Assembly: GCA_022072255.1 (NCBI GenBank)
Contig: JAJVHZ010000027.1
Coordinates: 18,660-82,659 of the forward strand
Origin: Gammaproteobacteria bacterium
Lineage (GTDB): Bacteria > Pseudomonadota > Gammaproteobacteria > JAJPIJ01
Reading direction: 5' to 3'
DNA: 64,000 nucleotides
Within the stretch, counting starts at the first letter, position 1. Each line of letters begins with the position of its first letter. The notes below the pieces were generated by a model that worked only from the letters and a program-made list of their open reading frames with translations, was not told the DNA's origin and searched no databases. A program made the translations under genes and the position numbers. Positions 2,684 to 58,431 of the stretch are shown here, piece by piece.

Positions 2684-2686
2684 ACG

Positions 2687-37403: not shown

Positions 37404-38009
37404 CTAAAAGGTTGAGATCTGGTACAGAGGGGCAATCGTGTGAAGGACTGAACTCGCCAACGAGATCGCTCTGAGGAGCTCCGGTATCTGGTCTGTGAGT
37501 ATCCAAGCTGGTTGTGTGGTGAGTTCGGGTGGGAGGAGGTGGGGGTGGTGTTGGAGGATTTGTTGGGTGAGGGTGAGTTGGCTCTGCCAAGTAACGGTGT
37601 GCTTCATGATGGTCCAGGTGATGTGGTGGGTGTGTTGTTGGGTGATGAGGGCTTCGGTGAGAGTTTTTAGGACGGTGGTGTGGCCGGGGCCATGGGGTAG
37701 TGTGGCGTCGAGGTATGCGCGTTCGTATCCGCCTGCGGGGTAGTGGTGGTCGAGGAGTTGTTTGGCTTTTCCGAAGGCTTGTTCTGGGGTGAGGTCTGTC
37801 TTGAGGGGGAGGGCTTCTTTGAACACCAAGGTGGTGAAGGCGGTCAGGCTTTGGTTGAAGGTTTGGTAGTCGGTAGGTTCGGGGTGGGTTTCGAGGAAGG
37901 TGAGGTAGCATTTTTGGATGGGTTCGTCGTAGAGGGTGGCGAGGTGGTTCTCGTCCAGTTCGGCGAGGATCTGTTCCAGGGGGGATGGGTTGGTTTGGGT
38001 GGGGTTCAT
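37404..38009 (-). CDS. hypothetical protein, stand-alone copy of the ~195-aa repeated domain (D1)
   Basis: ATGA overlap with upstream ATPase; aligns by eye with 56436-57023, 57052-57642 and the C-terminus of 52998-54662. Confidence 0.72.
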   Translation of the reverse strand: MNPTQTNPSPLEQILAELDENHLATLYDEPIQKCYLTFLETHPEPTDYQTFNQSLTAFTTLVFKEALPLKTDLTPEQAFGKAKQLLDHHYPAGGYERAYLDATLPHGPGHTTVLKTLTEALITQQHTHHITWTIMKHTVTWQSQLTLTQQILQHHPHLLPPELTTQPAWILTDQIPELLRAISLASSVLHTIAPLYQISTF

Positions 38010-40546
38010 GGGAAGGTGTCGTATTTGAGTTCGGTATGGTTTGTGTCGCCGGTTGCTGTGGGTTCGGTTGCGGGTGGTGGGGTGCTGTATCTGTGTCGGC
38101 TGTTGCTGAGTCGTTTGGCTTCGAGGTATGGCAGGTAGTAGCGGCGGTGGGAGTTTTCGATGATTTGGTCGTGGTGGTGGGTTTCGGGTTGGGGTGGGGC
38201 GTTGAGGGTACTGATTTTTACGATTTCTGTGTGGATGCGGGCGTAGGCTTGGTAGGGGTCGAGGTGGATGATGTCTTTTGCGGTGACTTCTTCTTGGAGT
38301 TCGAGGCTGGCGCGGTGTGCTGATTCGGGGTCGCAGCGCATGATGATGGAGGCTCCGGCTCCGGTGAGGGCTTCTTGTTCGGCGGGTGTGAATTGGCGGC
38401 TGTAGTGGTGGGCGAGTATCCATCCGACTTTGGCTTTGCGGTCTTCGACGAGGCTGTCTTCGATGGCGTCGGTGACGAATTTGTGGGCTTCGTCGGCGTA
38501 GACGAAGAATGGAAGGTTGTCTTCGTATTTTTTGTTTAGGCGTCGTAGTGCGGAGATGTGGAGCATTGCGAATAGTAGGGATCCGAGGATTTGGCAGATC
38601 ATGGGTCCGATGGCTGAGAGGTCGATGAGTAGGATGTGGCCTTTTTCCATGATGTGGGGGATGTCAATTTTGCTTTGGGGGATGGAGAGGGTGAGGCCGA
38701 CGGTGTCGCTGTGGATGAGTTTGCTGAGGAGTCCTTGGGGTGGTTGGAAGGCCATTTTTTCGTAGTTTTCGAAGTCGTTTCTCCAGTATTGTTGGATGTC
38801 GGTGTCGTTGATTGATTTGAGGATTTTGCGGATGAGTGTCCGGCTTTCGTCGGATCCTCGGCGTAGGAGTGTGCTCAGGTCGCGGATGGTGCTGCCGGGG
38901 AGGTGGAGGAGGGCGTGGAAGCCGTAGCGTAGGATGTGTTCCATGCGGTTGCCCCAGGCGTTGTGTTCCATGAGTCCTTTGAAGGCGCCGACGATTTCGT
39001 CGACGGTGCGTCCGAGGTCTTGCAGGGTTCCGATGTCGAGTGGGTTCCAGCAGGGGGCGAAGGCGTGATCTTTCCAGGAGACGTAGACGACGCGGTCGAT
39101 GTGTTCGGGGGTGATGTAGTAGAGGAGTTTGTCGACGAGGGTTCCGTGGGGGTCGAGGACGCAGACGCCGTATCCTTTTGGGATGTCGTCAAGGATCATG
39201 GTGAGCATGGTGGTGCTTTTGCCCATACCGGGGCCGCCTTGGATGTGGATGCTGCGGAAACGCAGGTCTTCGGAGAGGTAGACGGTTTTGTCTTCTCCGG
39301 CGATGTTGGCGGTACCAATGGGGGTGCCTTCTTTTAGAATAGCGTCGGAGGGGATGAAGGGGGTGAGGTGAGTCATGGGGACGTCGTCGCGTTCTAGGGC
39401 GGATTCGGGTGGTAGGTGGACCAGTCCGGTGAGTTCTTGGGAGTTGAGGAGGAATCCTGGCCGGTAGGTGGTCCCCAAGTGCAGCATTTGATGAATCGCA
39501 TCAGGCGGGAAGTTGTCGCCGTAGCCTTGCTCAGTTAGACGATTGAGGGGGAGTCCGCCGTGTTGGAAGACGCACATTGAGGAGTCGAGCGAAATCATAT
39601 CGATGAGACGTTCGCTTGAGGAAGCGAGTCCGATGCGGATGGCGACTGAGAAGAAGGGTTTGTCGTTGTGGGCTTTGTTTTCGATTTCCATGGCTTCCTG
39701 GCGGTTGTCGGCTGATGGGGGGATCAGGGGCCGGTTCTGGGCGAGTGGGTTGTTGAGGGTTTTGATGAAGTGTTCCATATCCCGTAAGACGTCCACGTTG
39801 TGGTGCCAGTTGTGGGTGGGATTGGTGGGTTGGAAGGCTACTTGGTAGAGGCCGATTGCTTCCGTTGGAAGGCGGCCTATGAGGACGATGACTGGTTCCA
39901 GGGTGGAGAATTTTAGCTCGTAGGGTCGTGTGAGTAGGTGCGAGTAGGGGGGATTGGGGAAGTAGTCCAGTAAGTGGATGACCTGGCGATCCATTCGTGG
40001 GTTTCCCCAGAGTGTTTTGTTATCTGGCATGAGGCGGCATTCGGGGTAATGGGCTGCGAACATTCCTTCTAGAACCGGCCAGTCTTTGACAGTGGCAGAG
40101 AACTGGATGTCGACTCGCTCCTTGTTTCCGGCCACGGCGAAGAGGATCCGGTGGGTAAGCCCGCTGATCCCCTTGAGGAAGAGTTCGGATCGGACCCAGT
40201 CGAATGGGTGCTTCGGTGAGATCCATACCCTCCCGGTCTGCCAGACCGGCTCTTCTTCACAGGAAACCGATAGGGGAAAGCGTTGGGCGCTCCCAAAGTC
40301 TTTAGTCAGAACGATCGGTTCGTACCGGGGTTCAAGGTGTACCGGGTACGGATAGATTTCCGGGCTACAACCCTTCTCCATCTCGCCCGAAATGAGCCTT
40401 TCAGCGCTAGACCGCAGGAACTGGGGACGGCTGTACTCCACAATGGCACCGGCGATTGAACCCATGGATCTAGTTTTCTCCCGATCCTCTAGCGGCAGGC
40501 AAGACCTCCACTGTTCGGTTTCGCCTCTCAGGTTACCCCCGTTCAT
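38006..40546 (-). CDS. VirD4/TraD-like coupling-protein ATPase (FtsK-HerA superfamily)
   Basis: Walker A GGPGMGKS, CVLDPHG, WNPL, WGNRMEHIL, Walker B YADEAH, ILAHHY; start uncertain. Confidence 0.8.
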   Translation of the reverse strand: MNGGNLRGETEQWRSCLPLEDREKTRSMGSIAGAIVEYSRPQFLRSSAERLISGEMEKGCSPEIYPYPVHLEPRYEPIVLTKDFGSAQRFPLSVSCEEEPVWQTGRVWISPKHPFDWVRSELFLKGISGLTHRILFAVAGNKERVDIQFSATVKDWPVLEGMFAAHYPECRLMPDNKTLWGNPRMDRQVIHLLDYFPNPPYSHLLTRPYELKFSTLEPVIVLIGRLPTEAIGLYQVAFQPTNPTHNWHHNVDVLRDMEHFIKTLNNPLAQNRPLIPPSADNRQEAMEIENKAHNDKPFFSVAIRIGLASSSERLIDMISLDSSMCVFQHGGLPLNRLTEQGYGDNFPPDAIHQMLHLGTTYRPGFLLNSQELTGLVHLPPESALERDDVPMTHLTPFIPSDAILKEGTPIGTANIAGEDKTVYLSEDLRFRSIHIQGGPGMGKSTTMLTMILDDIPKGYGVCVLDPHGTLVDKLLYYITPEHIDRVVYVSWKDHAFAPCWNPLDIGTLQDLGRTVDEIVGAFKGLMEHNAWGNRMEHILRYGFHALLHLPGSTIRDLSTLLRRGSDESRTLIRKILKSINDTDIQQYWRNDFENYEKMAFQPPQGLLSKLIHSDTVGLTLSIPQSKIDIPHIMEKGHILLIDLSAIGPMICQILGSLLFAMLHISALRRLNKKYEDNLPFFVYADEAHKFVTDAIEDSLVEDRKAKVGWILAHHYSRQFTPAEQEALTGAGASIIMRCDPESAHRASLELQEEVTAKDIIHLDPYQAYARIHTEIVKISTLNAPPQPETHHHDQIIENSHRRYYLPYLEAKRLSNSRHRYSTPPPATEPTATGDTNHTELKYDTFP

Positions 40547-40567
40547 GCCAAATCTGAACTTCAGATG

Positions 40568-40607
40568 AAAAAAAACTCCTTGACCGCCTGAAGGTAATGA
40601 GTATCAT
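40568..40607 (+). promoter_or_regulatory. sigma70-like promoter of the plus-strand ATPase/kinase operon
   Basis: A-tract, TTGACC (40580-85), 16 nt, TATCAT (40602-07); SD AGGAGG before ATG 40729. Confidence 0.55.
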
Positions 40608-40728
40608 TCCTCATTTATTGTCGATATTGTTTGCATGTTTTGTCTCGGTCGCATCGTTTCGGTTTCGTTCAGTTCACACAAACCCTAGGTGTTCGTTTGA
40701 TTTGTCACTGAGGAGGAGGTGTGTAAGG

Positions 40729-42951
40729 ATGACATCTGAAGGGCCGGATATCGCCAAAGAGATTCCTGTCAGTATTGAGGCAATAGGGGACAAGGTACTC
40801 GCATCGCAGTTTCATGTCTCCCGAATTATCACTCCTTTCATCGGGTGGTTGCTGCTAACCTTCGTTCTCTTCGATGTAATGGGAAACATAATAGGATTCC
40901 CGGTTATTACAGGAAGTATCTTCGGTGGGGTTAAGCGAATCAGTGGCACTGATGATCCTTACACATCCCGCCATGGATTCGAAGTCACTAAGCGTGATTC
41001 GGAAAAGAGTCCCCAATTTCGCTGGGTAGCAGTAGTTCATACGCGCGCTGCCGGTGCTGTTTCATTTGGTATTCAATTGGTGATTCTTGTAGCATCCGTC
41101 GGTTTTCTCTACTTCTCTCCTTGGCGCTTTTGGCTTCCTGTAATGTTTTCCACTGACGAATTTGAAAGCGGAGTCTTTGAAAAGATTCCTTTGGTCGGTG
41201 GGAAATTTCGGTCCCTTTATTCGATCATTTCAGAGAGTGGACTCCGGATAGCCCAGGCTGGGATTAAAGAGGATGAAGATCCACACAGTTTTACGATTGG
41301 ATTTCGTGTTTTTCTGTCGGTAATCGTCATTGTCTGCTCAATGATTCTCATGGCTGTGTTGTGGCATGCGTCGGTAATGCTTCTTGTAATCGGCGTATTC
41401 GTTATTGTTTTTGGGGATAGTGCAATGAAGTGTGTTCACCTCTTTTGGCAAAGGATTAGTTCAGATTTCGGATCGTTGTTGGGAATGTATCTCGGTGTCG
41501 CACTGGCCGCAGCATTCTCTCTCCTCATGGGTGCACAATGGGGCCTCTATTACCAATTCCCCTTCCAAGTTTGGTTTTTGGGTGATTTTTTCGTCTTCCG
41601 GTTACTGGAGGTTTTCCTCCTTTCAGCGGTAATCCTGATGCTTTCTGTTCAGTCCCAGGCGGGATTGAAGTGTGCGGTCTTTTATCGTGCCCAGAAGCCA
41701 GAAGCGGGTTTCAGACGGTCTTATCATGTGTTTGATTACCGCAAGGTAGCATCATGGCCTGTGTTTGTTTACCTGGACCCAGACTCGATCACGAAGGCTG
41801 TTGTGTTGCTGCGGAGAGATGATAAGCACTACGAGGTGATCGACCACTCTCTACGGATTCCTTTGATGAGTGGCATATTCACGGTCTTGAATCTGTCAGC
41901 ACTGGAATCTCGTTTGGGGGACACTCGTGTTCGCGTCAAGGATGGAAGAGAGTTTTTCACTTGTGAGGCGGAATACCGAATCAGTCCTCGGTCTTTTGAT
42001 TCTCTCAAGAGCACGATGCTCGGAGAACTTGGTAATTCTCTTCCAGATAGAGCTGTTGGGCTTGTGTTGGATGAGATTTTTAAGAATGAAAAGCCGTTGA
42101 ACCTTTTTAATGACACGTTTGCAAAGGCATTTGTGGAATACTCGAATGGGAAAAATAAGACGGCAAGAGATATCCGCGAGAAATATACGAGTATTGAGGC
42201 CGAGATCCGTGTAGCGAGTATGTTTGTTGATGCTCAGCTCCAAATACCTTCAACTATGGTAGGCGGCGATGTCGGCGGCCTCGCGTTGAGTATTACTGGC
42301 TACAGCCAACTACGGGCAGCAGGGTCCCGCATGCGTGATTTGATTGAAGGGCCACGTGAGGAGTGGAAGTACTATCGTGAAAAGAAAGCTCAAGCCAGGA
42401 CGGAATTACCTGGCGTATTCTTGAATCATCTTCGCAGTCATTTCATGAAGGAATTGATACAGGGCGAGACAACTCCAGGAGATGAGGTGTTAGAGAAGAC
42501 GGCGGATTGTCTTCTGGCTTGCTTTGGGGTTCATCTGGTGGTCAATGATTTTGACTTTGCTCCGGGTCCGTCTAGGGAGTGCGAAAATATGATACAGACG
42601 CTTGAGGCTGGCTTTGCTGCTAAACAGGAGAGGATCGACCAGGAGATCCAACGTCGTGAACAGTCGATGTTGGATTTCTTCCAGCGTCGGATTGAGCGTG
42701 TCGAGGAGAATAAGCGGGAGGTGGTGAATCAATTGATACAGACGGCTCCGCATGTGCTCCCATACCTGTTACAGACTCGCGGTGGTGAAAGGTTGGTAGA
42801 TTATCTTTTGTCATTGGGTGAGTCGGCGTTACGTAATTCGGTTGAGAGTCTATCCCGGATTCCAGCTGATCGACCCGCTGAGATTGAGGCTCAGGTCAAT
42901 GAGCTGGCTGGGGTGGGAGGGGGTGGTGATCTAGGTGGGTCTGGTGCGTAA
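40729..42951 (+). CDS. polytopic membrane protein with C-terminal soluble coiled-coil region
   Basis: About 7-8 hydrophobic segments in the N-half; charged helical C-half (AKQERIDQEIQRREQ..RRIERVEENKRE). Confidence 0.7.
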   Translation: MTSEGPDIAKEIPVSIEAIGDKVLASQFHVSRIITPFIGWLLLTFVLFDVMGNIIGFPVITGSIFGGVKRISGTDDPYTSRHGFEVTKRDSEKSPQFRWVAVVHTRAAGAVSFGIQLVILVASVGFLYFSPWRFWLPVMFSTDEFESGVFEKIPLVGGKFRSLYSIISESGLRIAQAGIKEDEDPHSFTIGFRVFLSVIVIVCSMILMAVLWHASVMLLVIGVFVIVFGDSAMKCVHLFWQRISSDFGSLLGMYLGVALAAAFSLLMGAQWGLYYQFPFQVWFLGDFFVFRLLEVFLLSAVILMLSVQSQAGLKCAVFYRAQKPEAGFRRSYHVFDYRKVASWPVFVYLDPDSITKAVVLLRRDDKHYEVIDHSLRIPLMSGIFTVLNLSALESRLGDTRVRVKDGREFFTCEAEYRISPRSFDSLKSTMLGELGNSLPDRAVGLVLDEIFKNEKPLNLFNDTFAKAFVEYSNGKNKTARDIREKYTSIEAEIRVASMFVDAQLQIPSTMVGGDVGGLALSITGYSQLRAAGSRMRDLIEGPREEWKYYREKKAQARTELPGVFLNHLRSHFMKELIQGETTPGDEVLEKTADCLLACFGVHLVVNDFDFAPGPSRECENMIQTLEAGFAAKQERIDQEIQRREQSMLDFFQRRIERVEENKREVVNQLIQTAPHVLPYLLQTRGGERLVDYLLSLGESALRNSVESLSRIPADRPAEIEAQVNELAGVGGGGDLGGSGA

Positions 42952-42954
42952 AAG

Positions 42955-44130
42955 ATGTGCGCCCAGATTCGGTATCACAGGGAACTGATTGGTAGCGGTC
43001 CAGAACCCCTTTCGGCTGCTTCGTGTGGGAACGCCTTGATGCAGGCAGTTGGTGCGTTTCTCTCCCAGGGGGGAGACCGGTATGCAATGATGCAACTGAG
43101 TCTGGCCAGACAGTCCGAAGACGCGACTCTGGCGTGGTCTCTCTTTGACTCAGATGTTTCCCTGCTGTCCCAGGAATCAGCCCTCTTCGATCTGCTCTTC
43201 TCACGGGAGGATGGCTGGATCAGGACAGACGATGGGATGTCCTCTCCCGATAGGGCCTTCCCGAGTCCGGGTACTTCGTGCTGGACAACCTCACTCGCGC
43301 GCCGGATTCAGTTCCTTGATCTGCCGTTCCGTTTTCCCGCACTTCCCTCATCCCTGCCGAGTCCACAACCAATTGCCACGGGTAAGGGGGTCCCACCGCA
43401 ATCTTCTGCAGGCCGTCCGGATTCAGGGTCGGTTGCCGTCGGCGTCGGAGACCGTCGGCCATCCGCCATGATCTATCGCGGTAAGCGGAGGATTCCCCCA
43501 CTCGGCTTACCGGTGGTTGAGGATACTCTGGTCTCCCCGGTCTGTCTTCCATTCGTTATGGCTTTGCGAGGGGAGAATGCCATAAGGCGGGACTTCCGAA
43601 ATTTTATTCTCCGACTTGCGCCGATGGAGTTGAGGCTCACTTTCCGCGCTCCCGATGCCGAAGGCCTTTTTCAGGACAGGGCCACTTCGACTTATCTTCG
43701 GCAGTGGGTTGGCCGGCTTTTCGAGCCTGGGTCTTCGATGGTCTTCCCTCACTCCAGGGAAGCGTGGTCGTGCTATGGCCAGTATTGGTCTGCGCCTGAA
43801 GACCTCCTCGATGTGGCTATCTCAGTTGTGGCAGCAAGCCGGGATCGGATGCTTGCGCTCGCGCACCTTTTCTCCAGCGTCTTCCTCGCCACCGGTTGTC
43901 TGGGATCTGATCCGGACGGCGTAACTCAGGGAGAGCCCGGTGGGGAGTGTGGGGGCTCCGAGAAGTGGTTTGATGGCCGTGGTTTGCTTTACGACCAAGT
44001 CTATCAAGGATTCATGACGAGGATGCGCCAAAGGTTCACCGTTCAGGAGGCGCTTGTTCTGTCCAACAACCTGGCAGGCGCACTTGCGAGGTTTGGCAGT
44101 TTGAAAGAAGCGGCGGTGAGTGGAGTTTGA
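42955..44130 (+). CDS. hypothetical protein
   Basis: 391-aa ORF packed 3 nt after the previous stop and 18 nt before the ATPase; no motif recognised. Confidence 0.6.
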   Translation: MCAQIRYHRELIGSGPEPLSAASCGNALMQAVGAFLSQGGDRYAMMQLSLARQSEDATLAWSLFDSDVSLLSQESALFDLLFSREDGWIRTDDGMSSPDRAFPSPGTSCWTTSLARRIQFLDLPFRFPALPSSLPSPQPIATGKGVPPQSSAGRPDSGSVAVGVGDRRPSAMIYRGKRRIPPLGLPVVEDTLVSPVCLPFVMALRGENAIRRDFRNFILRLAPMELRLTFRAPDAEGLFQDRATSTYLRQWVGRLFEPGSSMVFPHSREAWSCYGQYWSAPEDLLDVAISVVAASRDRMLALAHLFSSVFLATGCLGSDPDGVTQGEPGGECGGSEKWFDGRGLLYDQVYQGFMTRMRQRFTVQEALVLSNNLAGALARFGSLKEAAVSGV

Positions 44131-44148
44131 TTCGGGTCCATTTAAGGA

Positions 44149-47166: not shown

Positions 47167-47674
47167 ACCCAAACGCAGGGAGGAGATCGAGTCTGAAATC
47201 AAGGAGCGGGAGGAGGATCTTGAGGAGCGAGCGGAGAAAGAAGGTCAGGTTGTGGAGGATAAGGTTCACATCAGTGATGCAGCCAAAGAGCTGAACCTTG
47301 CTGGGACGGAAGATGGCGCCGACCAGATCAAGGAGTTGGTCACTGAGGGGGGTGTTGAGGTGGACGAGGAGTTTGAGCGGCAGGACGACGAACTCAGTGA
47401 GGTTCATGAGGAATGTAAGGAAGTTGAGGAAGAGCTCACTGACCGGGCTGAGAAGAGCTCTGAGGATGCGGAGAAGACGGCGGATGCCGCTGAGAAGGTT
47501 GAGACGGAAAAAGCTAGCCGTCAGTTGGATGAAGCAGCTAAAGCAGCCGATGAGGACAGTCAGTATTTGGAGGCTGCTGAGGAGGAACAGGAGTCGATCC
47601 GGGAAAAGAGTGAGGAGACTCAGGCTGAGCATCGTGAAGTTTTGGAGCATACCGAGATTGAGTTCAAGGAGTAG
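47150..47674 (+). CDS. extremely acidic all-helical protein
   Basis: 174 aa dominated by E/D; no Cys cluster or TM segment; start overlaps the ATPase 3' end. Confidence 0.75.
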   Translation: MAIGDKPKRREEIESEIKEREEDLEERAEKEGQVVEDKVHISDAAKELNLAGTEDGADQIKELVTEGGVEVDEEFERQDDELSEVHEECKEVEEELTDRAEKSSEDAEKTADAAEKVETEKASRQLDEAAKAADEDSQYLEAAEEEQESIREKSEETQAEHREVLEHTEIEFKE

Positions 47675-47678
47675 GCCG

Positions 47679-48236
47679 ATGGATCTTCTTGATCGAACTC
47701 GTGAGGTAATGGAGCGTTATCGCCGGGCTTTGGCGGAGTTACGGCGTCCACCGAAATTCGGTTCAAAGGGTGGGATCTTCGCTTTTGCCGAGGAAGAAGA
47801 GCAACGCCGGGTAAAGGATGAGTATCTTCATGCGCGCCAGGAGTTGAAATTCTGCGTGGATGAATTGCGGGAGGTTGTGTCGCTTCTAGAAATGGATGAT
47901 GAGATTTTGGACGACATGCCTTTGGTTACCAGGCCTGCCAAGGAACTTTTGGATCGAGCTGCGGAAGTTAACCGCAAGGATTTGGAGAGGGCTCAGGAGT
48001 TGCTCGATGCGGCTGGGAACGCGCTTGGTGAGTCGGAGGCGGGTGAGAGTCCCTTCCCTGTTTTTGGATCGGGCCGGATTTGGGATGGGTGGCCGATGGA
48101 GATTGTTGAACCTTGTGATGAACCAATTGCACCTCCGGATCCCTCTCTTGGATCGGCGTCAAATGAACCTGAGAGTTTGGAAAGTCTTTTGGGGCGTAGG
48201 AAGCGTTTGCCTGGAGAAAAGGCCAAGGAGTCGTGA
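47679..48236 (+). CDS. hypothetical helical protein
   Basis: ATG 47679 four nt after the previous stop; GTGA overlap with the WD40 gene. Confidence 0.6.
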   Translation: MDLLDRTREVMERYRRALAELRRPPKFGSKGGIFAFAEEEEQRRVKDEYLHARQELKFCVDELREVVSLLEMDDEILDDMPLVTRPAKELLDRAAEVNRKDLERAQELLDAAGNALGESEAGESPFPVFGSGRIWDGWPMEIVEPCDEPIAPPDPSLGSASNEPESLESLLGRRKRLPGEKAKES

Positions 48237-50215: not shown

Positions 50216-52956
50216 TGGGGGGTGATTCACTCCCCGGTGATGAAACGGAGACAACGTCGCATTCCGTTTTGGATGCTGTCTGTTTTTCGCCACCTGTCCT
50301 TCTTTCCAGCCTTCCACCGTTGCAGCTGGGGACGATCTTGGGGGGGCGTTATCGTATTGATCGATTCTTGGGGCGTGGTGGTGTTGGGGCGGCCTATCAG
50401 GCCACCGATTTAAAGTGGAATGGAACTTTGGCGCTCAAAGTGGTGATCGAGGAGGGTGGGGGCCTGAGTGGGTGGCTTGCTTATGAATACTCGGTTTTTC
50501 AGCGGGTTGAACAGAATGCACATATCTTGAGGTTGTACGAGCCGGTTCTTGTCGAGCATGAGGGTTGCCCCCTTTCGCTGCTTCCGATGGAGTGGGCCGA
50601 TGGGGGGAGTTTGCGGGACTGGATTCAGAACCGTGCGTCATCTCCATTTCACCTAGAGAATGTATTGGATCTCTTCATCGAGGCTTGTAGGGGCGTCGAG
50701 TCCTTGCACAAGGTGCATGTGGCTCATCTTGATATCAAGCCCGAAAATCTCTTGCTTGTTCGAGGCCGGTTGAAGGTGGCGGACCTTGCATCGGCGCGTG
50801 TGGATGCGCCTTCCTTCATGAAAGGGTTTGAACAGCTTCCATCAAGGAGACGGGGGACTCCCGCGTACCGGAGTCCGGAGCAGTTCGTGGCCGCTCGCGA
50901 AGAAGATATCGACCATCGCTCAGACATCTATAGTTTGGGCGTGGTTCTTTATGAGCTGCTGGATGGCTCCAGGCCCTTTGACGGTGACGAGGCGGAACTG
51001 AGAGACAAGCACTTGAGTTTGCCGCCGCCAGTGATTCGGAGGGATTCCGGGGATTGGTGGCCGATTACGAGAAGGTGTTTGTCGAAGGGTGTCCTCGAGC
51101 GGTATCAGAGTGTTGAGGAATTACTTCGTGATGTGGACCGTAGAAGGCGTGGGTTGCCTGGTGCCGGTGATGTGGCCTGTAAGGTCTGCGGGCACCTCAA
51201 TCGAGATGAGCGGGCTTTGACCTGTGCGGTATGTGGAACGAATCTGGGAGAGGTTTTTCGAGAGTGTCCGAAATGTGGGACGAAAAATCGGCTGGATGTT
51301 GAGATTTGCCGTGTTTGTGGAACCTCCGTGGCGTGGTTGTTCTTTGGCCTCGATCGGATGCAGAGGATTCGTCAATCTTTTGATAGTGATCCTTGCCAGG
51401 CGGTTACGGATTTGGAGGAGATCCTCCGGCTGAAGATTCCAAGTGTCGAGAATGAAGCCTTGGATTTGTTGCGGGTTGTTCGAGGGCGGATGGAACAGAT
51501 CTCAGGGGACCTTGAGGAGGGGGAGCGTGCTTGGCGGCTTGGGAGGGTTGTGGATGCGTTGGATTCCTGGAACCGGGTCTTATCGGTTTTTCCACACCAT
51601 CGTTCCGTCTGTGAAAAGGTCCTTCAGGCGCAGGTGGTTCTTGCGGAAATTGAGTCTCTAAGGCATACCGCTGAGTCTTGCCTTGAGTCGGCGCGGTTTG
51701 GCGAGGGTCAAGAGCTATTGCGTGCCGGGCTCGCTCGTTTTCCTGGGGCTGATGAACTCCGTTCTCTTCTTGCTCAGGTTCCAGTTTGTCAGGATCGGTA
51801 CAGGAAGGCGTTTGCGGCGGCCAGGAATCACGCTTCCGCCTTGTCGCTCGCCTTGGCATTGGAGAGTCTTGAGGCAGCCCTTTCAACCTCACCAAAGAGT
51901 GAAGAAGCCCTTCTCCTGCAACACCAGATCCTGGAGAGTGTTAAAAAGGTTGAGGCTCTTTTGGATCAGGCTGCGAAGGACTTCGAAGCCGCGCTCTTTC
52001 CCAAGGCCTTCTCCTGTCTCGAACAGGTCAACAACCTTCAGAAGGATAATTCTCAGATGGATTGCCTGCGGAGCACGGGTGTAGAGAAGCAGGCGGGCTA
52101 TTCCGAGTCGTTTTCACAGGCTTCGGTGGCTTACGATGCGGGAGATCTGGAGGGTTGCCTGAAGACGGTTCAGGATGCGCTCAGTTTCTGTCCTACGTCG
52201 GAGGAGGCGTCGGGTCTTGCTCGTGAGGTTGAGGATCGTTTGGAGTCGTGCCGGGCATTGCTTGAGAGTGTTGCGGTCCATCTAAAAGCCGCTAGATTCC
52301 AAGAGGCTGCTGTCGAATTGAAAACAATCGAGTCTCAATGGGCATTTTGTCCTGGACTTGGCGATCTTAAGAAGAATGCTGACAAGACGAAATGTTCCTA
52401 TGCCGCGTGCATGGAAGCGGCTCGCAAAGCGCTGGGAAAGTGGGATCGCAATGGTTTCTTTGAAGCGGTCAGTGGAGCCCTGAGTCTTTGCCCTGACTCG
52501 GTGGAGGCCAAGGATCTGGCTAAGAGCCCGCCCCCGGTACCTCCTCCCCCGGTGGATTTGAGTTGGCTTTTTATCCTGGTTGGCTGGGGTGGCCTGATTG
52601 CCGCTGTGTGCTGGTTGGTGTACTCGCTTGTGATGTCTTTGGCTGCAGGCGTGTGGAAGGTGTGGTTGGTCACCCTGGAGGATCCTTTGCCTCTTTTGTT
52701 GTCCTTTCTTTTCTTGTCGGTCATCACGGGGATAGTGGGTTCTGTTCGGAGTTCCAACGCTCTTTTTTTCGAAAGGTTCGTCACGGCTTTCATATTGCCA
52801 TTTGCGGTCAGCGGCGTGATTGTTGGGTTCGGTGTCGGCATAATGCTATGCCAAAAGCTTCTTGAGTGGGATAACGCCAGTTCTTTCATTGGAGGACTGG
52901 TTGCAGCGAACGTGAGCGCCCTTGTACTTCTCATTGTAACTTTTCGGTCAAGGTAA
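50212..52956 (+). CDS. Hanks-type Ser/Thr protein kinase with zinc ribbons, TPR-like region and C-terminal TM anchor
   Basis: LGRGGVGAAY, ALK, HLDIKPEN, ADLA (DFG position), GTPAYRSPEQ, DIYSLG; four CxxC pairs; PPPVPPPP followed by about 4 TM segments. Confidence 0.9.
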   Translation: MMGGDSLPGDETETTSHSVLDAVCFSPPVLLSSLPPLQLGTILGGRYRIDRFLGRGGVGAAYQATDLKWNGTLALKVVIEEGGGLSGWLAYEYSVFQRVEQNAHILRLYEPVLVEHEGCPLSLLPMEWADGGSLRDWIQNRASSPFHLENVLDLFIEACRGVESLHKVHVAHLDIKPENLLLVRGRLKVADLASARVDAPSFMKGFEQLPSRRRGTPAYRSPEQFVAAREEDIDHRSDIYSLGVVLYELLDGSRPFDGDEAELRDKHLSLPPPVIRRDSGDWWPITRRCLSKGVLERYQSVEELLRDVDRRRRGLPGAGDVACKVCGHLNRDERALTCAVCGTNLGEVFRECPKCGTKNRLDVEICRVCGTSVAWLFFGLDRMQRIRQSFDSDPCQAVTDLEEILRLKIPSVENEALDLLRVVRGRMEQISGDLEEGERAWRLGRVVDALDSWNRVLSVFPHHRSVCEKVLQAQVVLAEIESLRHTAESCLESARFGEGQELLRAGLARFPGADELRSLLAQVPVCQDRYRKAFAAARNHASALSLALALESLEAALSTSPKSEEALLLQHQILESVKKVEALLDQAAKDFEAALFPKAFSCLEQVNNLQKDNSQMDCLRSTGVEKQAGYSESFSQASVAYDAGDLEGCLKTVQDALSFCPTSEEASGLAREVEDRLESCRALLESVAVHLKAARFQEAAVELKTIESQWAFCPGLGDLKKNADKTKCSYAACMEAARKALGKWDRNGFFEAVSGALSLCPDSVEAKDLAKSPPPVPPPPVDLSWLFILVGWGGLIAAVCWLVYSLVMSLAAGVWKVWLVTLEDPLPLLLSFLFLSVITGIVGSVRSSNALFFERFVTAFILPFAVSGVIVGFGVGIMLCQKLLEWDNASSFIGGLVAANVSALVLLIVTFRSR

Positions 52957-52997
52957 GGGTTCTTCCCTCCGCCGGGAAATGGTGTCTCGAAGTGTTA

Positions 52998-54662
52998 TCA
53001 GACCCGTTTGAGGTATGCCGCTATTCCTCCGATATTGTCGGCGAGGGTTTGGAGTAGTTCGGTGAGGTGGTTGGCGTATTGTTCGGGTGGGGCGTTGTGT
53101 AGGTGGCCGGGGAGGTTGTCACCGAGGCGGTCAAGGATTTTCTTGGTGAGGGTGATTTTGAGTTGGTGGTCGAGTGGGTTGATGGCTTGGGTGAGGCGGG
53201 TGGTGCGGTAGTCGTGGATGTGTTGGTGTTTGAGGTGGTTGGTGAGGGTATCGAGGATGGTGCGTAGTCCTCCGTGGGTGGGGTGGAGTGCTTCTTGGGT
53301 GGCGGCTCGGATGCCGCCTTGGTTTTGGTAGGCTTGGTCGAGTGTGGGGATGGCTTGGGTGGCGGCCTGCTCCAGGTCTGTTACTACGATGTGGTGGTGA
53401 AGGTGCCGCATGAGGTGGAGATAGAAAGCGGTGATGGTATTGTGGAATTCTTCCTCGTTTTCGGCAGTTATTTTTTCGAGGCGGTAGGTGTTTCGGGCGT
53501 GGTCGTAGTGGTTGCCGACTTCCTTGGCGAGGTTTTCGTCTGAGATTTCGAAGAGTATCTGGTTGAGGAGCCGGTCTGCATCATCCGTTCCCTGGTTTGT
53601 CTGCATCTCCTTAATGATGGGCCAGGTGCTTTCACTTATTTTTCCTGCAGCGATTTCAAAGATGTGTTTCAGGTCGTCGTGGTTTTCGTGGGTGGCCAGT
53701 TGGGCGATCCGGCTTGCTTGGTCAACACTGAGCGTTGTGGAGTTTTCCTTTTGGCGTATGAGGGGTGGCAGGGAGAGGATGAGGCTGTGCAAGTCGGCTC
53801 CGAAGTTCTTCGGGTATTGGCCGGTGTACGTTTGGTGGGTGATGAAGGCTTCCAGGGTACGGCGAGATCTTTCCGTATTGCCTTCGAGGTAGGCGTGTTC
53901 GAGGGTGTTCCAAAATCTTTTCCTGTGGTCCATCAAAATAAGGTTTACCGTTTTGTCGATGGGGGTGCCATTGGTGCTGAGGGATGCCTGGTCCTGATAG
54001 TACCCAGTCTCGAGGGCTGCGATGGCGATGTCGTCGGGGTCGATGGTGGTTTCGATGAGGTCGGCTATGTCGTGGATGGATTGAATCCTCATGTGGTTTT
54101 GGTGTTGAAATCTTTTTTCGCGGATGCGGTCGAGTTCTCGTGGTGTGAGGTTTTCGAGTGAGGGATCGGTGTCGAGTGCGGGGTGGATGAAGTGGGTGAT
54201 GCCTTGTTGGGCTGCTGCTTCGATTTTTTCCGGGAGGTGGTGGACGAGGCGGGTGTGGCCGTTGGGGTCGGCGATGTGGCCTGTGGCGACCATGTTTTGA
54301 GGGAGTGGGACTTGAGTGGCTGCGGAGAGGGCGGCGAGGAAGATGGGGAGGTCTGCCGAGAAACCGCTGATTGCAATGGGGCGGTTTTGGGTGGCGCTGA
54401 CGTTGAGGTTGGCAATACTGATTTCAAATCCGTTGACTGTGATGTTGACCTTTTTTAGGATGCGTTGGACGCATTCGAGGACTGTTTCTTCGATATGTTG
54501 TTGGATTTGAGTGTCCCATTGGGCCGGTCCTGTGATGCGAAGTCTTTCTGTGTTTCCGTCGTTGATGGCTTGGGCTGTTACTTCTGTAATGACGGCGACT
54601 GCTTGAGTACCGGTGGTTACGACAAGGGCGGCTCGAGTTTTGCCGATCGCTTTGGGGGTCAT
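52998..54662 (-). CDS. Lon/S16-type protease domain (no AAA+ module) fused to C-terminal repeated domain (D2)
   Basis: ISGFSADLPIFLA..TGHI..LPEKIEAA; Ser and Lys 44 residues apart as in the Lon dyad; ATGA overlap at 54659-54662. Confidence 0.7.
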   Translation of the reverse strand: MTPKAIGKTRAALVVTTGTQAVAVITEVTAQAINDGNTERLRITGPAQWDTQIQQHIEETVLECVQRILKKVNITVNGFEISIANLNVSATQNRPIAISGFSADLPIFLAALSAATQVPLPQNMVATGHIADPNGHTRLVHHLPEKIEAAAQQGITHFIHPALDTDPSLENLTPRELDRIREKRFQHQNHMRIQSIHDIADLIETTIDPDDIAIAALETGYYQDQASLSTNGTPIDKTVNLILMDHRKRFWNTLEHAYLEGNTERSRRTLEAFITHQTYTGQYPKNFGADLHSLILSLPPLIRQKENSTTLSVDQASRIAQLATHENHDDLKHIFEIAAGKISESTWPIIKEMQTNQGTDDADRLLNQILFEISDENLAKEVGNHYDHARNTYRLEKITAENEEEFHNTITAFYLHLMRHLHHHIVVTDLEQAATQAIPTLDQAYQNQGGIRAATQEALHPTHGGLRTILDTLTNHLKHQHIHDYRTTRLTQAINPLDHQLKITLTKKILDRLGDNLPGHLHNAPPEQYANHLTELLQTLADNIGGIAAYLKRV

Positions 54663-55309
54663 TTGTTCCACTGGAGTCGTAGGGTTCCGTTTTCGATCCC
54701 GGGAAAAACTTCGAGGAGGATCTCGCCGCCAAGTAATGGGGTGGTGGATGTGGGTTTGAGGTCGCTTGGTTGGGTTGCGGCTGCGGCGGGTAGGGGTTCA
54801 GCGGGGTGTGCCAGGCTCCAGAGGAGTTGTTCGGGTTCGAGTTTGTTGGACCAGATTTCGCGTCCGTTGGCGAAGGTGAGTGTGTACTCGCTGGGGTTTA
54901 TGCTTTGGAGGTCGTGGGGTTTTCCTGGGTGGAGTTGGATTTCCCAGTGTTGGCCTTCCGTGTTTTGGAGTGTGAGTTCGCAGGATGTGGTGTCGGGTGG
55001 TTCGGGGGATGGGATGGTTTCGCCTTGTATCATTTCGAGGAGTGCGTCGAGTTGGTCGTCGGGGATATCCTCGAATTCGCCGGTTTCGATTTTGTGGAAG
55101 ATGTTTTCGGCGAGGTCGGGCGCAAGGTCGCTGTTGGTGAGTACTTCGTGGAGGAATGTTTGGAAGTTTCGGTATCCTTCTTGGTATTCGGGTTGGTTGC
55201 GAAGGGAACAGATCTGGTCAAGGGCTTCGGCGATGGCCTTCTTGGGGTCAGGTGCGTCGTAGGCTTTGGTGAGGATGGCGAGGAAGTAGAGGTTTTGTTG
55301 GTCGGTCAT
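54659..55309 (-). CDS. hypothetical protein (helical N-domain, beta-rich C-domain); candidate partner of the HTH protein
   Basis: ATGA overlaps on both sides; C-terminal LLGGEILLEVFPGIENGTLRLQW. Confidence 0.7.
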   Translation of the reverse strand: MTDQQNLYFLAILTKAYDAPDPKKAIAEALDQICSLRNQPEYQEGYRNFQTFLHEVLTNSDLAPDLAENIFHKIETGEFEDIPDDQLDALLEMIQGETIPSPEPPDTTSCELTLQNTEGQHWEIQLHPGKPHDLQSINPSEYTLTFANGREIWSNKLEPEQLLWSLAHPAEPLPAAAATQPSDLKPTSTTPLLGGEILLEVFPGIENGTLRLQWNK

Positions 55310-56439
55310 TTTTGGTGTTCCTTGCGGGTTGGTTTGGTGGTGAGGGCTTTGATGAGGTCTTCTTGGTTGATTCCCGCTTCGTTAATGGATTCTTGGAATA
55401 AGGGGTTTTGGCTGATGACGGTGACGACGTTTTGCCATAGGTCGGGGATTCGTGGGTTTTCGCTTTCGTACCATTGGGTTCCGGCGATTTCGCTCATGGT
55501 GGCGAGTGGGATGTTGTAGGTTTCGGCGATTCGTCTGAGGTTGAATGTTCCTTCTGTGAGTTGTCGCAGACACATCTGGATTAGTGAGGGGAGTAATTCT
55601 TTTCCGAATCTTTTGAGTGTGGGGCGTAGGCGTTCGAAGTTTTCGAGTTTTTCTTCGATGACGGCGGTTTCTAGGCGGTGGTGGAGGCCGTCGATGGTGT
55701 TATAGAGTGTTTCTTGGTTGTCGCTAGTGAGGGGGAGGTTTTCGGTGTCGATGTGTTGTGGGAAGCGGAACCTGCCGTCGATTGTTTTTTGGATGGTTTT
55801 TTGGTCAAGTTGTTTTTGGCGGTTGTCTTGAGGGAAGTTTTGTTCGAGCCATTCCCTGATCTTTCTTGCGGTAATGCTTTTGGGGATTCGTAGGTTGATG
55901 GTTCCTTGGGGTGTTTTCCATTGGTATCGTCTTCCGGATGGGTCTTGGATGCGTTGGGCGTCAATGAGTGACAGGCCGTAGTGTCTCCAGACTAAACGTC
56001 CGAGAAGGGTGGCGGTGGTTTGTTCTGCTTCGATTTCTCCGAGTGGGGTGGTTTGGTTTTGTTGGTGGAAGGTGTTGAGGAATGCTTTGTAGTATTTGCG
56101 GCAGTCGACGGGGGGGCGTTTTGTGTCTTCGTGGATTTCGTACCTGGTTCCTGGGAGGGAGATGAATTTGTTGAGTGCGCGGTCGTGGGCTAGGTCGGCG
56201 GCTTCACTGTTGAGTGGTTCATTGCGTATCTGGGCTTCACGTAGTTGATTGAGATAATCCGACAGGATCAGGTTCCTCTTGCTTTTGTATTGAAAGATGC
56301 GGCGTGTGGTGAGGAAGCATTCGAGGGCGGCGGTGTCCGAGTTTTGGACGATTTGTTCGATGAGTTGGTGGGTGGGGAGTGAGCGATATTCTCTTGGGAT
56401 GAGGATGTGTATGGTTGCGGTATTGTTTGTGGTGGTCAT
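55306..56439 (-). CDS. hypothetical protein with C-terminal helix-turn-helix
   Basis: FNLRRIAETYNIPLATMSEIAG HTH-like pattern; ATGA overlaps on both sides. Confidence 0.65.
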   Translation of the reverse strand: MTTTNNTATIHILIPREYRSLPTHQLIEQIVQNSDTAALECFLTTRRIFQYKSKRNLILSDYLNQLREAQIRNEPLNSEAADLAHDRALNKFISLPGTRYEIHEDTKRPPVDCRKYYKAFLNTFHQQNQTTPLGEIEAEQTTATLLGRLVWRHYGLSLIDAQRIQDPSGRRYQWKTPQGTINLRIPKSITARKIREWLEQNFPQDNRQKQLDQKTIQKTIDGRFRFPQHIDTENLPLTSDNQETLYNTIDGLHHRLETAVIEEKLENFERLRPTLKRFGKELLPSLIQMCLRQLTEGTFNLRRIAETYNIPLATMSEIAGTQWYESENPRIPDLWQNVVTVISQNPLFQESINEAGINQEDLIKALTTKPTRKEHQK

Positions 56440-57023
56440 GTTTTTTTCTGGATGGCGTTTCGTAGTGTCATGAGGAGGCGTGGGTGTTGGGCGAGGGCGT
56501 GTGGGAAGTTGATGCGTAGGCGCATGTAGTTGTCTTCGGTGAGGTCTGGGGGGAGGATGTGTTGCCATTTTTGTCCGTATTCGATGGGGATGTCGTACTT
56601 CTTTTCGGTAAGGATTTGTCCCCAGTATTCAGTGACGCGGACGTGTATGAGGTTGTTGGCGATTTTTTCGGCCATGTGTGTGGCAAATTCTTTGAGGACG
56701 CCATAGAGTCCTCCGTTTCTTCCTGTTTGTGCTCGTAGGAATGCTTCTTTGTGGCCGTCGTGTCCGTAGATGGCGTTGAGGTTGTGGATGGCTTGTCCCC
56801 AGTTGATGGTGGGATGGACTTCAAGAGGATTCTTTAGGTCGTGGAGGTGGTTGGTCAGGTGGGCGTGGAATTGTTCCATGACGGTTTTGAATTCGTCCCA
56901 GTCGTCGACGCTTGGTTTGGTGTGGTGGAAGGTGTTGAGGGCTCGGTCTCTGAGTTGAAAGATGGCGTCATAGGTTTGTTCTGGGGAGATGGTTTCGAGG
57001 AAATCGTCGAGGTTGGTTCCCAT
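56436..57023 (-). CDS. hypothetical protein, repeated domain copy D3
   Basis: DDWDEF, GQAIHNLNAIY, GRNGGLYGVL, ILPPDL. Confidence 0.75.
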   Translation of the reverse strand: MGTNLDDFLETISPEQTYDAIFQLRDRALNTFHHTKPSVDDWDEFKTVMEQFHAHLTNHLHDLKNPLEVHPTINWGQAIHNLNAIYGHDGHKEAFLRAQTGRNGGLYGVLKEFATHMAEKIANNLIHVRVTEYWGQILTEKKYDIPIEYGQKWQHILPPDLTEDNYMRLRINFPHALAQHPRLLMTLRNAIQKKT

Positions 57024-57051
57024 GACTTCGATCTGTTTTTCGTGTTTTGTT

Positions 57052-57642
57052 TTACTGGCGGCTGAAGAGGCTGGTGGTTCGTCTTAGGGCTTCGGTGTAG
57101 CCTCGGACCAGTTCTTGGTAGTCGCTGGCGTATTTCTCTGGTTGGTCGGTACGGATGTACGGTGGCAGGTTGGGGCCGCAGGCTTGGAAGAGTTGGCGGA
57201 TGATGTTGACTTTTTCGTTCCATTCGGTGGGTTTGACGTGGGCGTCGAAGGCTTCGCGAATGTATCGTTCGACGGATTCGGTTTTAAGAGCGTCGGCGAT
57301 TCTGTCGAGGACGCCTCGGAGTCCTGAGTTGGTTCCTTCGCTGGCGTCGCGGAAGGCGGTCATGAGGTTTCCTTGGTGACGCCGGTAGACTTGTTCAAGG
57401 ATTTCCTTGGCGCGTCCGATGGCTTCGATGCGGTTGATTTGAGCACCTCGCGCCACGCAAGTTGTGTAGTGGTGGACGTAGTACTGTCCGATCATGTCAG
57501 AGAAATCGTCAAAGTCTCGGACGGTGTTCGAGCGGCAAATGAATCCCATACGTGCCTCGTCATGAGGGATTCCAACTCTCTGCGCGATCTCTCTTTCCTG
57601 AAGCGCCTTTGTCAGACTCTGAAAAGAACCCATAAGATCCAT
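57052..57642 (-). CDS. hypothetical protein, repeated domain copy D4
   Basis: RDFDDF, GRAKEILEQVY, GTNSGLRGVLD, NLPPYI, PEKYA; SD GGAGG. Confidence 0.75.
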   Translation of the reverse strand: MDLMGSFQSLTKALQEREIAQRVGIPHDEARMGFICRSNTVRDFDDFSDMIGQYYVHHYTTCVARGAQINRIEAIGRAKEILEQVYRRHQGNLMTAFRDASEGTNSGLRGVLDRIADALKTESVERYIREAFDAHVKPTEWNEKVNIIRQLFQACGPNLPPYIRTDQPEKYASDYQELVRGYTEALRRTTSLFSRQ

Positions 57643-58315: not shown

Positions 58316-58431
58316 GCCTCTCCCACGCAGCAACACCTCTATAAAAAACTTCACCACCACCCCAAAGAAACAACACACGCCATAGGGGGGGGTTTTTTGT
58401 CGGGGGTGTGGGGGTGGTGAAGGGGGGACGC

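Follow-up and report, generated by a model that had tools for sequence, protein, structure and literature searches.

Core genes of the locus

A 64,000-nt stretch of DNA from a Gammaproteobacteria bacterium, referred to here as the window, was analysed with a focus on the region 37404-57642. Seven minus-strand core genes of this region, named D1, ATP2, PROT, PART, HTH, D3 and D4, encode three free-standing copies of an undescribed domain (the D domain), a protease that carries a fourth copy (D2) at its C-terminus, a TrwB/VirD4-like ATPase, a partner protein and a putative helix-turn-helix (HTH) protein. Four copies of the domain had been proposed in a first-pass annotation of the window, and all of them were confirmed at the positions given below.

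D1, 37404-38009, minus strand: free-standing D-domain protein, 201 aa; its start overlaps the ATP2 stop codon (ATGA)
ATP2, 38006-40465, minus strand: soluble TrwB/VirD4-like P-loop ATPase, 819 aa
PROT, 52998-54662, minus strand: Lon (S16)-type protease, 554 aa, with D2 as its C-terminus
D2 within PROT, residues ~358-554, roughly 52998-53591, minus strand: matches the D1 family in hhalign
PART, 54659-55309, minus strand: 216-aa partner protein, located between HTH and PROT in every locus
HTH, 55306-56439, minus strand: 377 aa, with a C-terminal FGLSxATxSRF-type motif
D3, 56436-57023, minus strand: free-standing D-domain protein, 195 aa
D4, 57052-57642, minus strand: free-standing D-domain protein, 196 aa

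The proposed minus-strand operon of D4, D3, HTH, PART and PROT holds; D4 and D3 are spaced by 28 nt. Four-base ATGA overlaps were found for D3/HTH (56436-56439), HTH/PART (55306-55309), PART/PROT (54659-54662) and ATP2/D1 (38006-38009), the last of which bears out the claimed translational coupling of D1 to the VirD4-like ATPase. Such overlaps suggest that the products could be co-translated, stoichiometric partners. The start of PROT was corrected to the ATG at 54662 rather than the GTG at 54671, and the HTH gene was redefined as 55306-56439. ATP2 probably starts at 40465, which gives an 819-aa protein matching all orthologues, while a longer open reading frame (ORF) extends to 40546. Promoter and terminator scans gave nothing above chance.

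Homology, structure and distribution of the D domain

The similarity of the four D copies was assessed by BLASTP within the window, where they align collinearly over 130-194 residues with 70 bits for D2 and D4, 44 bits for D1 and D4, 37 bits for D1 and D2 and 35 bits for D3 and D4. At third codon positions the A+C content of the four D genes is 74-87%, and T, H, Q, P and N are abundant in the encoded proteins, so that the resemblance might be due to the extreme A+C-rich codon composition of the minus-strand genes. Since the window genes are strongly composition-biased, the test was redone with orthologues from loci of normal base composition. In cross-locus BLASTP, window D4 scored 106 bits against the protease C-terminus of locus L003, and the window protease scored 90 bits against the D4 of locus L001. 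Comparison of the family alignments by hhalign (16 sequences per orthologue family) gave E=2e-25 for D1 with D4, 2e-13 for D3 with D4, 2e-32 for D2 with D1 and 5e-15 for D3 with D1, each match covering 183-190 columns. The likeness is stronger between these normal-composition families, and a composition artefact was rejected as having a negligible probability. Judged from these alignments, D1, D2, D3 and D4 are full-length homologues, and a resemblance that had been noted by eye proved significant in profile-profile comparison (E 2e-13 to 2e-32).

The claim that the domain is undescribed also stood. D showed zero matches in Pfam, NCBIfam, PADLOC and PHROGs and none among the PDB sequences, profile search included. 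A Pfam scan of D1, D3, D4 and PROT returned no family at E<=0.01 save a weak Lon_C match on PROT. The AlphaFold2 model of D4, based on an alignment of 55 sequences, is confident and all-helical with nine helices (predicted local distance difference test, pLDDT, 91.7; predicted template-modelling score, pTM, 0.86). A Foldseek search of this model against the PDB and BFVD found no structural neighbour, the best match having an E of ~1.4 and a template-modelling (TM) score of ~0.2.

A profile hidden Markov model (HMM) was built from D1-D4, as had been suggested, and used for an exhaustive protein search. With HMMER, 1,838 clusters were obtained from 1.84 billion representative proteins at E<=1e-3, of which 268 reached E<=1e-30, counted as clusters at 50% identity in public data. 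D4 homologues make up 168 clusters, all of ~193 aa and 50-88% identical. Among the best 150 D matches, the architectures were free ~193-aa proteins, ~555-aa Lon-D fusions and fragments thereof, one fusion to a DUF2201_N (HExxH) metallopeptidase (P0226, in locus L126) and one to an unassigned N-terminal domain (P0204); D was C-terminal in every one of them. The domain was found on a peptidase and as free proteins, never inside ATP2 or the second ATPase of the region, ATP1. D4 is the best-conserved gene of the module, with a mean pairwise identity of 0.60 over 13 loci versus 0.33-0.50 for the remaining core genes. Invariant residues on the D4 surface are H27-D28-E29-R31, K79-E80, R109/D113 and K120-R129. 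A D4 scan of IMG/VR (2.9 million contigs) showed no relative, and tblastn searches of INPHARED phages and PLSDB plasmids with D4 as the query gave nothing.

Extra tandem D4-like paralogues were observed in two loci, with three copies upstream of HTH in a Hydrogenedentota locus (L040, 8642-10567) and two after D1 in a Tepidisphaeraceae locus (L038, 8817-10237). Another locus (L127, 8818-11296) carries three D genes, one of them with a 185-residue unassigned N-terminal domain, and has no ATP2 and no PROT; the same applies to L128. The neighbours of these D genes are a large serine recombinase, a ThiF/Prok-JAB cluster, a beta-clamp, a radical SAM enzyme and a reverse transcriptase. Because these D trios occur without ATP2 or PROT, the D domain operates in at least one further gene context.

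Protease, partner protein and HTH protein

PROT consists of a Lon S16 protease domain (residues ~1-175), a helical middle region and D2 (residues ~358-554). A profile of 21 PROT orthologues matched archaeal LonB protease domains of the PDB (1xhk at E=8e-8, and 1z0x; range 8e-8 to 1e-6). Ser102 (in GfSaD) and Lys146 (in peK) align with the catalytic Ser-Lys pair and are invariant in the 21 orthologues. The protease domain begins at the N-terminus, with no AAA matches, and an AAA+ module is absent. The only defence model touching PROT was PADLOC CARF-Lon. Fusion of one D copy to a peptidase, another claim of the first-pass annotation, was confirmed, and the peptidase turned out to be exchangeable: in locus L126 the DUF2201_N metallopeptidase-D fusion stands in the place of PROT and is followed by D4, D3 and ATP2.

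PART showed no family match and no structure match in Pfam, NCBIfam, PADLOC, PHROGs and a profile search against PDB sequences. For the HTH gene, two of 21 members each matched Pfam HTH_5 and HTH_IclR, with best E values of 0.003 and 0.005. The profile search of the HTH protein gave no significant PDB match, and no match was found in NCBIfam, PADLOC or PHROGs. The earlier HTH call stands on the conserved FGLSxATxSRF-type motif and these two weak Pfam matches, and is weakly supported. No SAVED, CARF or Sigma70 matches were observed for PROT, PART or HTH.

A TrwB/VirD4-like ATPase

The description of ATP2 as VirD4-like is supported by both Pfam and fold. Of 47 ATP2 orthologues, 41 matched TrwB_AAD_bind and 16 matched T4SS-DNA_transf. 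The AlphaFold2 model (pLDDT 81) comprises an ATPase with an all-alpha domain at residues ~390-790, preceded by ~400 N-terminal residues without a recognised fold. Among the top Foldseek matches, the closest superposition was with TrwB (PDB 1e9s, 1gl7; TM 0.62-0.67, root-mean-square deviation 5-6 A over ~440 columns). By E-value HerA came first, and VirB4, DotL (6sz9) and SIR2-HerA also matched. The Walker A K416 and the Walker B D658/E659 are invariant in the 47 orthologues. A crude hydropathy scan, run without a dedicated predictor, found no N-terminal hydrophobic segment typical of a membrane anchor. ATP2 is VirD4-like in fold, but it is no classical membrane-bound coupling protein. Plasmid proteins matched via the ATPase domain only, at ~25% identity. 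The ATPase half also matches phrog_5156 (E=2e-28), an 824-position phage-associated family of similar length with no assigned function.

Conservation of the module in integrating mobile elements

Thirty-three genome loci were found via D4 homologues, and their gene families were mapped with HMMs built from four loci. The loci belong to Planctomycetota, Thermodesulfobacteriota, Hydrogenedentota, Nitrospiraceae and one bin labelled Bacteroidales. The canonical order, on a single strand, is HTH-PART-PROT(D2)-D4-D3-ATP2-D1-AEP primase, followed by an HTH_17 excisionase-like gene, a tyrosine integrase and a tRNA gene (Arg, Pro, Asp, Thr or Asn). Counted over loci long enough to judge, ATP2 is followed by D1 in 23/23, PART by PROT in 23/23, D4 by D3 in 27/29, PROT by D4 in 23/25, D3 by ATP2 in 21/23 and D1 by the primase in 19/21; because D4, ATP2, ATP1 or the primase served as the entry point to the loci, these co-occurrence counts are biased towards presence. 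The genes thus co-occur elsewhere in a fixed order, and the mobile-element setting that had been proposed was found in every case. Integrase, tRNA gene, HTH_17 gene and replication protein are present together in six loci (L001, L027, L029, L037, L045 and L131). Searches inside five loci found no att (attachment-site) repeats of the tRNA ends, and no direct repeats marking the far element ends.

Pairwise identities of the primase correlate with those of the core genes as well as the core genes correlate mutually (Spearman 0.54-0.75, 13 loci). The slot upstream of HTH is variable and, besides a kinase block described below, holds a type I restriction-modification (R-M) system (L030), a type IIG R-M enzyme (L033), an FtsK-like ATPase (L027) or a superfamily 1 helicase (L043), while the core is constant. 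A search from the primase side returned one full element (L131) and one minimal ATP2-D1-primase-integrase form (L132). In the latter (640-6431), HTH-PART-PROT-D4-D3 is absent from the primase-integrase element, and directly upstream of ATP2-D1 lie genes for a DUF4384 protein, a caspase-like Peptidase_C14 protein (782 aa) and a TPR-CHAT protein (1107 aa); neither the caspase-like nor the CHAT protein has a D domain. ATP2-D1 is read as part of the element backbone because of its constant, co-diverging position by the primase and integrase versus the variable cargo, together with this minimal form. HTH-PART-PROT-D4-D3 would then be a module that plugs into the ATP2-D1 backbone via the shared domain.

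A deletion derivative returned by the search from the primase side (L129/L130, 5451-9896) carries two fusion ORFs, one joining PART(1-113) to PROT(161-558) and the other D4(1-93) to ATP2(132-822). It occurs twice, near both ends of one 8.16-Mb contig, with identical upstream and different downstream sequence. Two element copies per genome were seen in one single-cell Planctomycetota genome and two metagenome-assembled genomes. Desulfocarbo indianensis SCBM carries a fragment on two near-identical 1.7-kb scaffolds.

The plus-strand block

In the window, a 12.4-kb block (40597-52956) is inverted between PROT and ATP2. It consists of the following genes:

Polytopic membrane protein, 40597-42951, plus strand: 784 aa, ~7 hydrophobic segments; opens the block
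391-aa protein, 42955-44130, plus strand: no family match
ATP1, 44149-47166, plus strand: HerA/FtsK-superfamily ATPase, 1005 aa
sA, 47150-47674, plus strand: acidic, 174 aa; orthologous to the small gene after ATP1 in L003
sB, 47679-48236, plus strand: 185 aa; the plausible portion of the 312-aa ORF 47298-48236
WD40-like beta-propeller protein, 48233-50215, plus strand: 660 aa
Ser/Thr protein kinase with zinc ribbons and TPR repeats, 50212-52956, plus strand: 914 aa

ATP1 showed weak Pfam matches to FtsK_SpoIIIE and DUF87, an NCBIfam match to CedD (1e-15) and PADLOC matches to mad8 (4e-14) and HerA models; its orthologues adjoin the core in many loci. The ORF 47298-48236 (312 aa, TTG start) is probably two genes, 47150-47674 and 47679-48236. 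The N-terminal third of the long ORF is arginine-rich and implausible, sA matches L003:1764-2276 (BLASTP E=9e-13), and sA and sB correspond in position to a pair of small genes that separates ATP1 from the WD40 gene in relatives (for sB, L001, L003 and L045). The WD40-like protein has weak Pfam WD40 and beta-propeller matches and orthologues in at least nine loci. The kinase matches Pfam Pkinase (3.8e-32) as well as PADLOC mad6 and PD-T4-6; five C-terminal hydrophobic segments appear in the window copy only (hydropathy scan). The 784-aa membrane protein (40597-42951) and the 391-aa protein (42955-44130) were not found in relatives.

The first-pass annotation had regarded the two minus-strand operons as bracketing the plus-strand block. 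As a design this was not borne out: bracketing was seen only in this window, and the ATP1-sA-sB-WD-kinase block is optional, lying upstream of the core in ~13/19 judgeable loci in either orientation. The nearest relative of the window, L005 (D4 88% identical), has the contiguous order PDDEXK-D4-D3-HTH-PART-PROT-ATP2-D1 and no primase, with SNF2, Replic_Relax and ArdC genes upstream. Apart from the inserted inverted block, the window shares this gene order and the PDDEXK, ArdC and Replic_Relax neighbours. Because the seven genes are contiguous in L005, the bracketed arrangement is a lineage-specific rearrangement and not system design. The sole inverted repeat found flanking the block is a 20-nt pair with 90% complementarity, at 40570-40589 (between ATP2 and the membrane-protein gene) and 53125-53144 (inside the D2 coding region). 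This pair could be a rearrangement scar or chance; it was considered too weak to be taken as the inversion site.

Possible role of the module

The data above show that the D copies are paralogous, that the Ser-Lys dyad is intact, that the ATPase is TrwB-like, that gene order is conserved, that the peptidase is exchanged and that the genes lie on mobile elements. Our preferred explanation of these observations, held tentatively and with slightly less than even confidence, is that the seven minus-strand genes form a conserved cytoplasmic backbone module of integrating mobile elements, in which the ATPase would be linked through D-D contacts to a regulator-switching protease. ATP2, probably a TrwB-like hexamer, would act on element DNA during replication, transfer or mobilisation, with D1 sitting on it. 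D3, D4 and the D2 of PROT would join D1 through D-D contacts, and this assembly would activate PROT to cut PART and/or the HTH protein. Cleavage would then change element transcription (induction or transfer control). In the window, the module would have moved to an element bearing a relaxase and ArdC and would have been split by the inverted ATPase/WD40/kinase block. Two precedents exist for the switch step of this scheme. ImmA/ImmR is the protease-repressor switch of ICEBs1, an integrative conjugative element (PMC8960796), and the Lon-type protease CalpL is activated by oligomerisation of its fused domain (10.1101/2024.05.08.593097) and frees a sigma factor from its partner (PMC11417357).

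Several points weigh against a backbone module of this kind. According to a simple hydropathy scan, all seven core proteins lack a transmembrane segment, and the module therefore cannot move DNA across the envelope alone. ATP2 has no N-terminal membrane anchor of the type found in true coupling proteins. The canonical relatives showed neither relaxase nor mating-pore genes. The HTH assignment of the 377-aa protein is weakly supported by its motif and profile matches. The D-D contacts, the D1-ATP2 contact, the substrate of PROT and the DNA activity of the module are deduced from sequence, predicted structure and gene context. Primase-integrase elements lacking the module would mostly escape a search led by D4, ATP2, ATP1 or the primase. 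Finally, exchangeable peptidases, HerA-like ATPases and R-M or caspase/CHAT neighbours are also typical of defence islands.

The last point leads to the main alternative, which we regard as nearly as likely, namely that the genes are an anti-phage or anti-plasmid conflict system carried as element cargo. Here the HerA/TrwB-like ATPase would sense or engage foreign DNA and the D adaptors would signal to the peptidase. The peptidase would trigger a transcriptional response or growth arrest via PART and HTH, with the kinase/WD40/ATP1 block as a co-operating sensor. A shared adaptor with an exchangeable peptidase effector matches NTPase conflict systems (PMC7159879), and the swap from Lon to a metallopeptidase was observed. 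Caspase and CHAT proteins occupy the equivalent slot of L132, R-M systems adjoin the core, and in L127 a ThiF/JAB cluster and a reverse transcriptase adjoin the D trios. The structural matches of ATP2 include SIR2-HerA complexes, and weak PADLOC matches link ATP2 and ATP1 to mad8/HerA, the kinase to mad6/PD-T4-6 and PROT to CARF-Lon. CalpL/T/S is a precedent here as well, with a Lon-type protease that releases a transcription factor in defence (PMC11417357). However, no chromosomal defence island devoid of mobile-element genes was found to contain the core, and unlike variable cargo the core co-diverges with the primase, immediately upstream of which it keeps a constant place and orientation. 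PADLOC gave no match for D, PART or HTH, and a D4 identity above that of the other core genes is unusual for fast-evolving defence components. If the defence reading were true, the genes would be a new multi-gene system.

A particle-forming or DNA-packaging module, with D as a structural or scaffold protein, PROT as a maturation protease targeted via D2 and ATP2 as the packaging motor, is very improbable: homotypic targeting of a protease into an assembly of its own paralogues is known from prohead proteases, D4 is very conserved, a primase and integrase setting suits a temperate element and the ATPase domain of ATP2 matches phrog_5156, but a role in particle morphogenesis is made unlikely by the failure to find anything in IMG/VR (2.9 million contigs), INPHARED, PHROGs or, as a structural neighbour, BFVD, and the canonical elements contain no capsid, portal, terminase or membrane protein.

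Whichever function applies, D is a large family (~1,800 clusters at 50% identity) without annotation anywhere and without a structural neighbour. It is a marker of a widespread family of integrating elements in Planctomycetota, Thermodesulfobacteriota and related phyla, in which mobile elements have hardly been studied. If the backbone model is true, the module would represent a new wiring of an ATPase motor to a protease-controlled regulator via paralogous adaptors, and the D profile and the ATP2-D1-primase triad would be handles for finding and classifying such elements.

Comparison with known systems

D had been likened to effector-associated domains (EAD) and Death-like domains. In EAD/Death-like systems (Kaur et al. 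2020, PMC7159879; 2021, PMC8195603), as in this module, one helical domain recurs in several products of a locus, a copy is fused to an exchangeable peptidase effector and an NTPase belongs to the set. On the other hand, D has ~190 residues and nine helices, a separate coupled D1 gene follows the NTPase, and four paralogues rather than a matched pair are tied to a primase-integrase backbone. The likeness did not hold at the level of the domain: since no Pfam EAD or Death model matched and D was never found on an NTPase, D is not EAD or Death-like.

The CalpL-CalpT-CalpS system of type III CRISPR (SAVED-Lon, anti-sigma and sigma factor; PMC11417357) also has a Lon-type domain without AAA+ and with a fused non-catalytic oligomerisation or sensor domain, and its protease gene likewise lies beside genes for a partner and a putative DNA-binding regulator. 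The module differs in having no SAVED/CARF domain or CRISPR locus, in carrying D at the C-terminus of the protease and in its 377-aa regulator, which matches no sigma-factor model. Compared with Lon protease (MEROPS S16), PROT has the Ser-Lys proteolytic domain but not the N-terminal AAA+ module. In ImmR/ImmA of ICEBs1 and kin (PMC8960796, PMC10233336), an element-borne DNA-binding regulator and a dedicated protease are found side by side, and a metallopeptidase variant of the D-fused protease exists (L126). There is, however, no sequence relationship, and the partner protein, the four adaptor paralogues and the ATPase link of the module have no counterpart.

With type IV coupling proteins (TrwB/VirD4/TraG; DotL), ATP2 shares the nucleotide-binding domain with intact Walker motifs and the all-alpha domain. 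The small adaptors IcmS, IcmW and LvgA are encoded with the ATPase DotL. Small helical proteins encoded with the ATPase are thus a common feature, but D shows no similarity to IcmS, IcmW or LvgA. ATP2 further differs by its missing transmembrane anchor and its ~400-residue N-terminal region without a recognised fold, and no relaxase or mating-pore genes accompany it in the canonical relatives. SIR2-HerA (PDB 8wld/8wod) resembles the module in that a soluble HerA/FtsK-superfamily ATPase, a structural neighbour of ATP2, is encoded with an effector enzyme. Its effector binds HerA directly, whereas paralogous adaptors, a regulator pair and a linkage to a mobile-element backbone are absent.

Elements resembling actinomycete integrative and conjugative elements (AICE-like) are also small and integrated at tRNA genes; they carry a rep-xis-int set, and one ATPase of the FtsK/TrwB superfamily is their sole candidate for a transfer motor. 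Here the hosts are instead Planctomycetota, Thermodesulfobacteriota and similar, the ATPase is TrwB-like and not an FtsK-like TraB, and Spd proteins are absent. The D, protease and HTH genes are new, and the window copy has no nearby primase or integrase. The TOTE conflict system is defined, as quoted in PMC12458937, by TPR, OB, TBP and effector. Membership in TOTE was rejected: the sole pointer to it is the Pfam name AEP-TOTE of the primase in the relatives, and the gene tables and small-gene scans showed no TBP, CSD or OB match. No mention of PF22548 or of the gene set of the module was found in the library of papers searched; a passing mention in the TOTE-defining paper is possible.

Strand skew of the region

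Between ~37.4 and 57.6 kb, the plus strand consists of 60-75% G+T, with GC skew reaching +0.57 and AT skew reaching -0.52, while the flanks are near zero. The edges are sharp and coincide with the D1 stop codon and the vicinity of the D4 start, with a weaker tail to ~58500. Third codon positions of the minus-strand genes contain 50-58% C and 23-35% A (A+C 74-89%), and those of the plus-strand genes from ATP1 to the kinase contain 37-48% G and 23-36% T (G+T 70-77%); the first two genes of the plus-strand block show a weaker bias, with 59-63% G+T. Because the third-position bias is opposite in minus-strand and plus-strand genes, one physical strand is affected irrespective of gene orientation. 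Third-position skews of this size are comparable with those of vertebrate mitochondrial DNA. Among ~45 loci, the skew was observed only in the window and in L005 (10500-18000), where only the seven core genes lie in the skewed part. The D4 homologues P0003 and P0004 (63% identity) belong to intermediate lineages. The window and L005 differ in a directional way, with 306 G>A versus 126 in reverse, 209 T>C versus 146 and 155 G>C versus 71 when counted on the coding strand. No clear motif emerged when the skew was inspected for a deaminase-type sequence context. An assembly artefact was ruled out.

The skew may stem from deamination of the non-template strand during long rightward transcription or in R-loops, from an ancestral replicon whose replication was strongly asymmetric, or from attack on one strand in its single-stranded state. 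A further and rather doubtful suggestion is that the 20 kb have been under sustained one-strand mutation (plus strand C->T and A->G), with either the module itself or the mode of replication, transcription or transfer in its lineage keeping that strand single-stranded. Handling of element DNA by the TrwB-like ATPase and its D partners is a candidate cause within this suggestion. If true, this would be the first bacterial mobile-element module with a local signature of its own DNA processing, beside being a new adaptor-domain system. The skew, once explained, could report how such elements handle DNA.

Neighbouring genes and environmental occurrence

Upstream of D4, the window carries the following genes:

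PDDEXK_18-like protein, 57797-58570, minus strand: directly upstream of D4, likewise in the nearest relative L005
ArdC-like antirestriction protein, 60109-61299, minus strand: Pfam ArdcN 1.8e-11
Replic_Relax (replication-relaxation) protein, 62352-63509, minus strand: Pfam 1.7e-18

Replic_Relax and ArdC thus lie within 6 kb in the window, and the canonical relatives have neither within 10 kb. The window itself has no tRNA gene, and no integrase or AEP primase was found among its scanned ORFs. On the other side of the module, positions 635-37038 hold three heavy-metal-type resistance-nodulation-division (RND) efflux sets (HlyD-like adaptor, AcrB-like pump and OEP genes), YHS/TRASH metal-binding proteins and a copper P-type ATPase (34720-37038). 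The first 37 kb of the window look like metal-resistance cargo on the element of the module.

Near-identical copies of the window sequence (93-100% of sampled words) occur in 20 metagenome runs that stem from many studies, mostly of wastewater, sludge and bioreactors, with a few aquatic and biofilm sources. These near-identical copies in many metagenomes, together with the three adjoining metal-efflux clusters, indicate that the window lies on a circulating element. In metatranscriptome assemblies the whole region is covered at a low and even depth; strand information is absent from these data, and some of the signal may come from carried-over DNA. Contigs of two RNA-labelled runs (X26 and X29) match the window to 54343 and 57606 and continue into unrelated sequence. 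These breakpoints, inside PROT and just inside the D4 start, suggest co-existing recombinant variants of the element.

Two ORFs of ~190 aa at 58432-59019 and 59861-60433 share a 73-residue cysteine-rich C-terminal domain (CxC...CxxC; 45% identity, E=9e-14) and have no family match, and three overlapping ORFs of 80-92 aa lie between them (59130-59895). In another locus (L010), similar small genes precede the PDDEXK gene.

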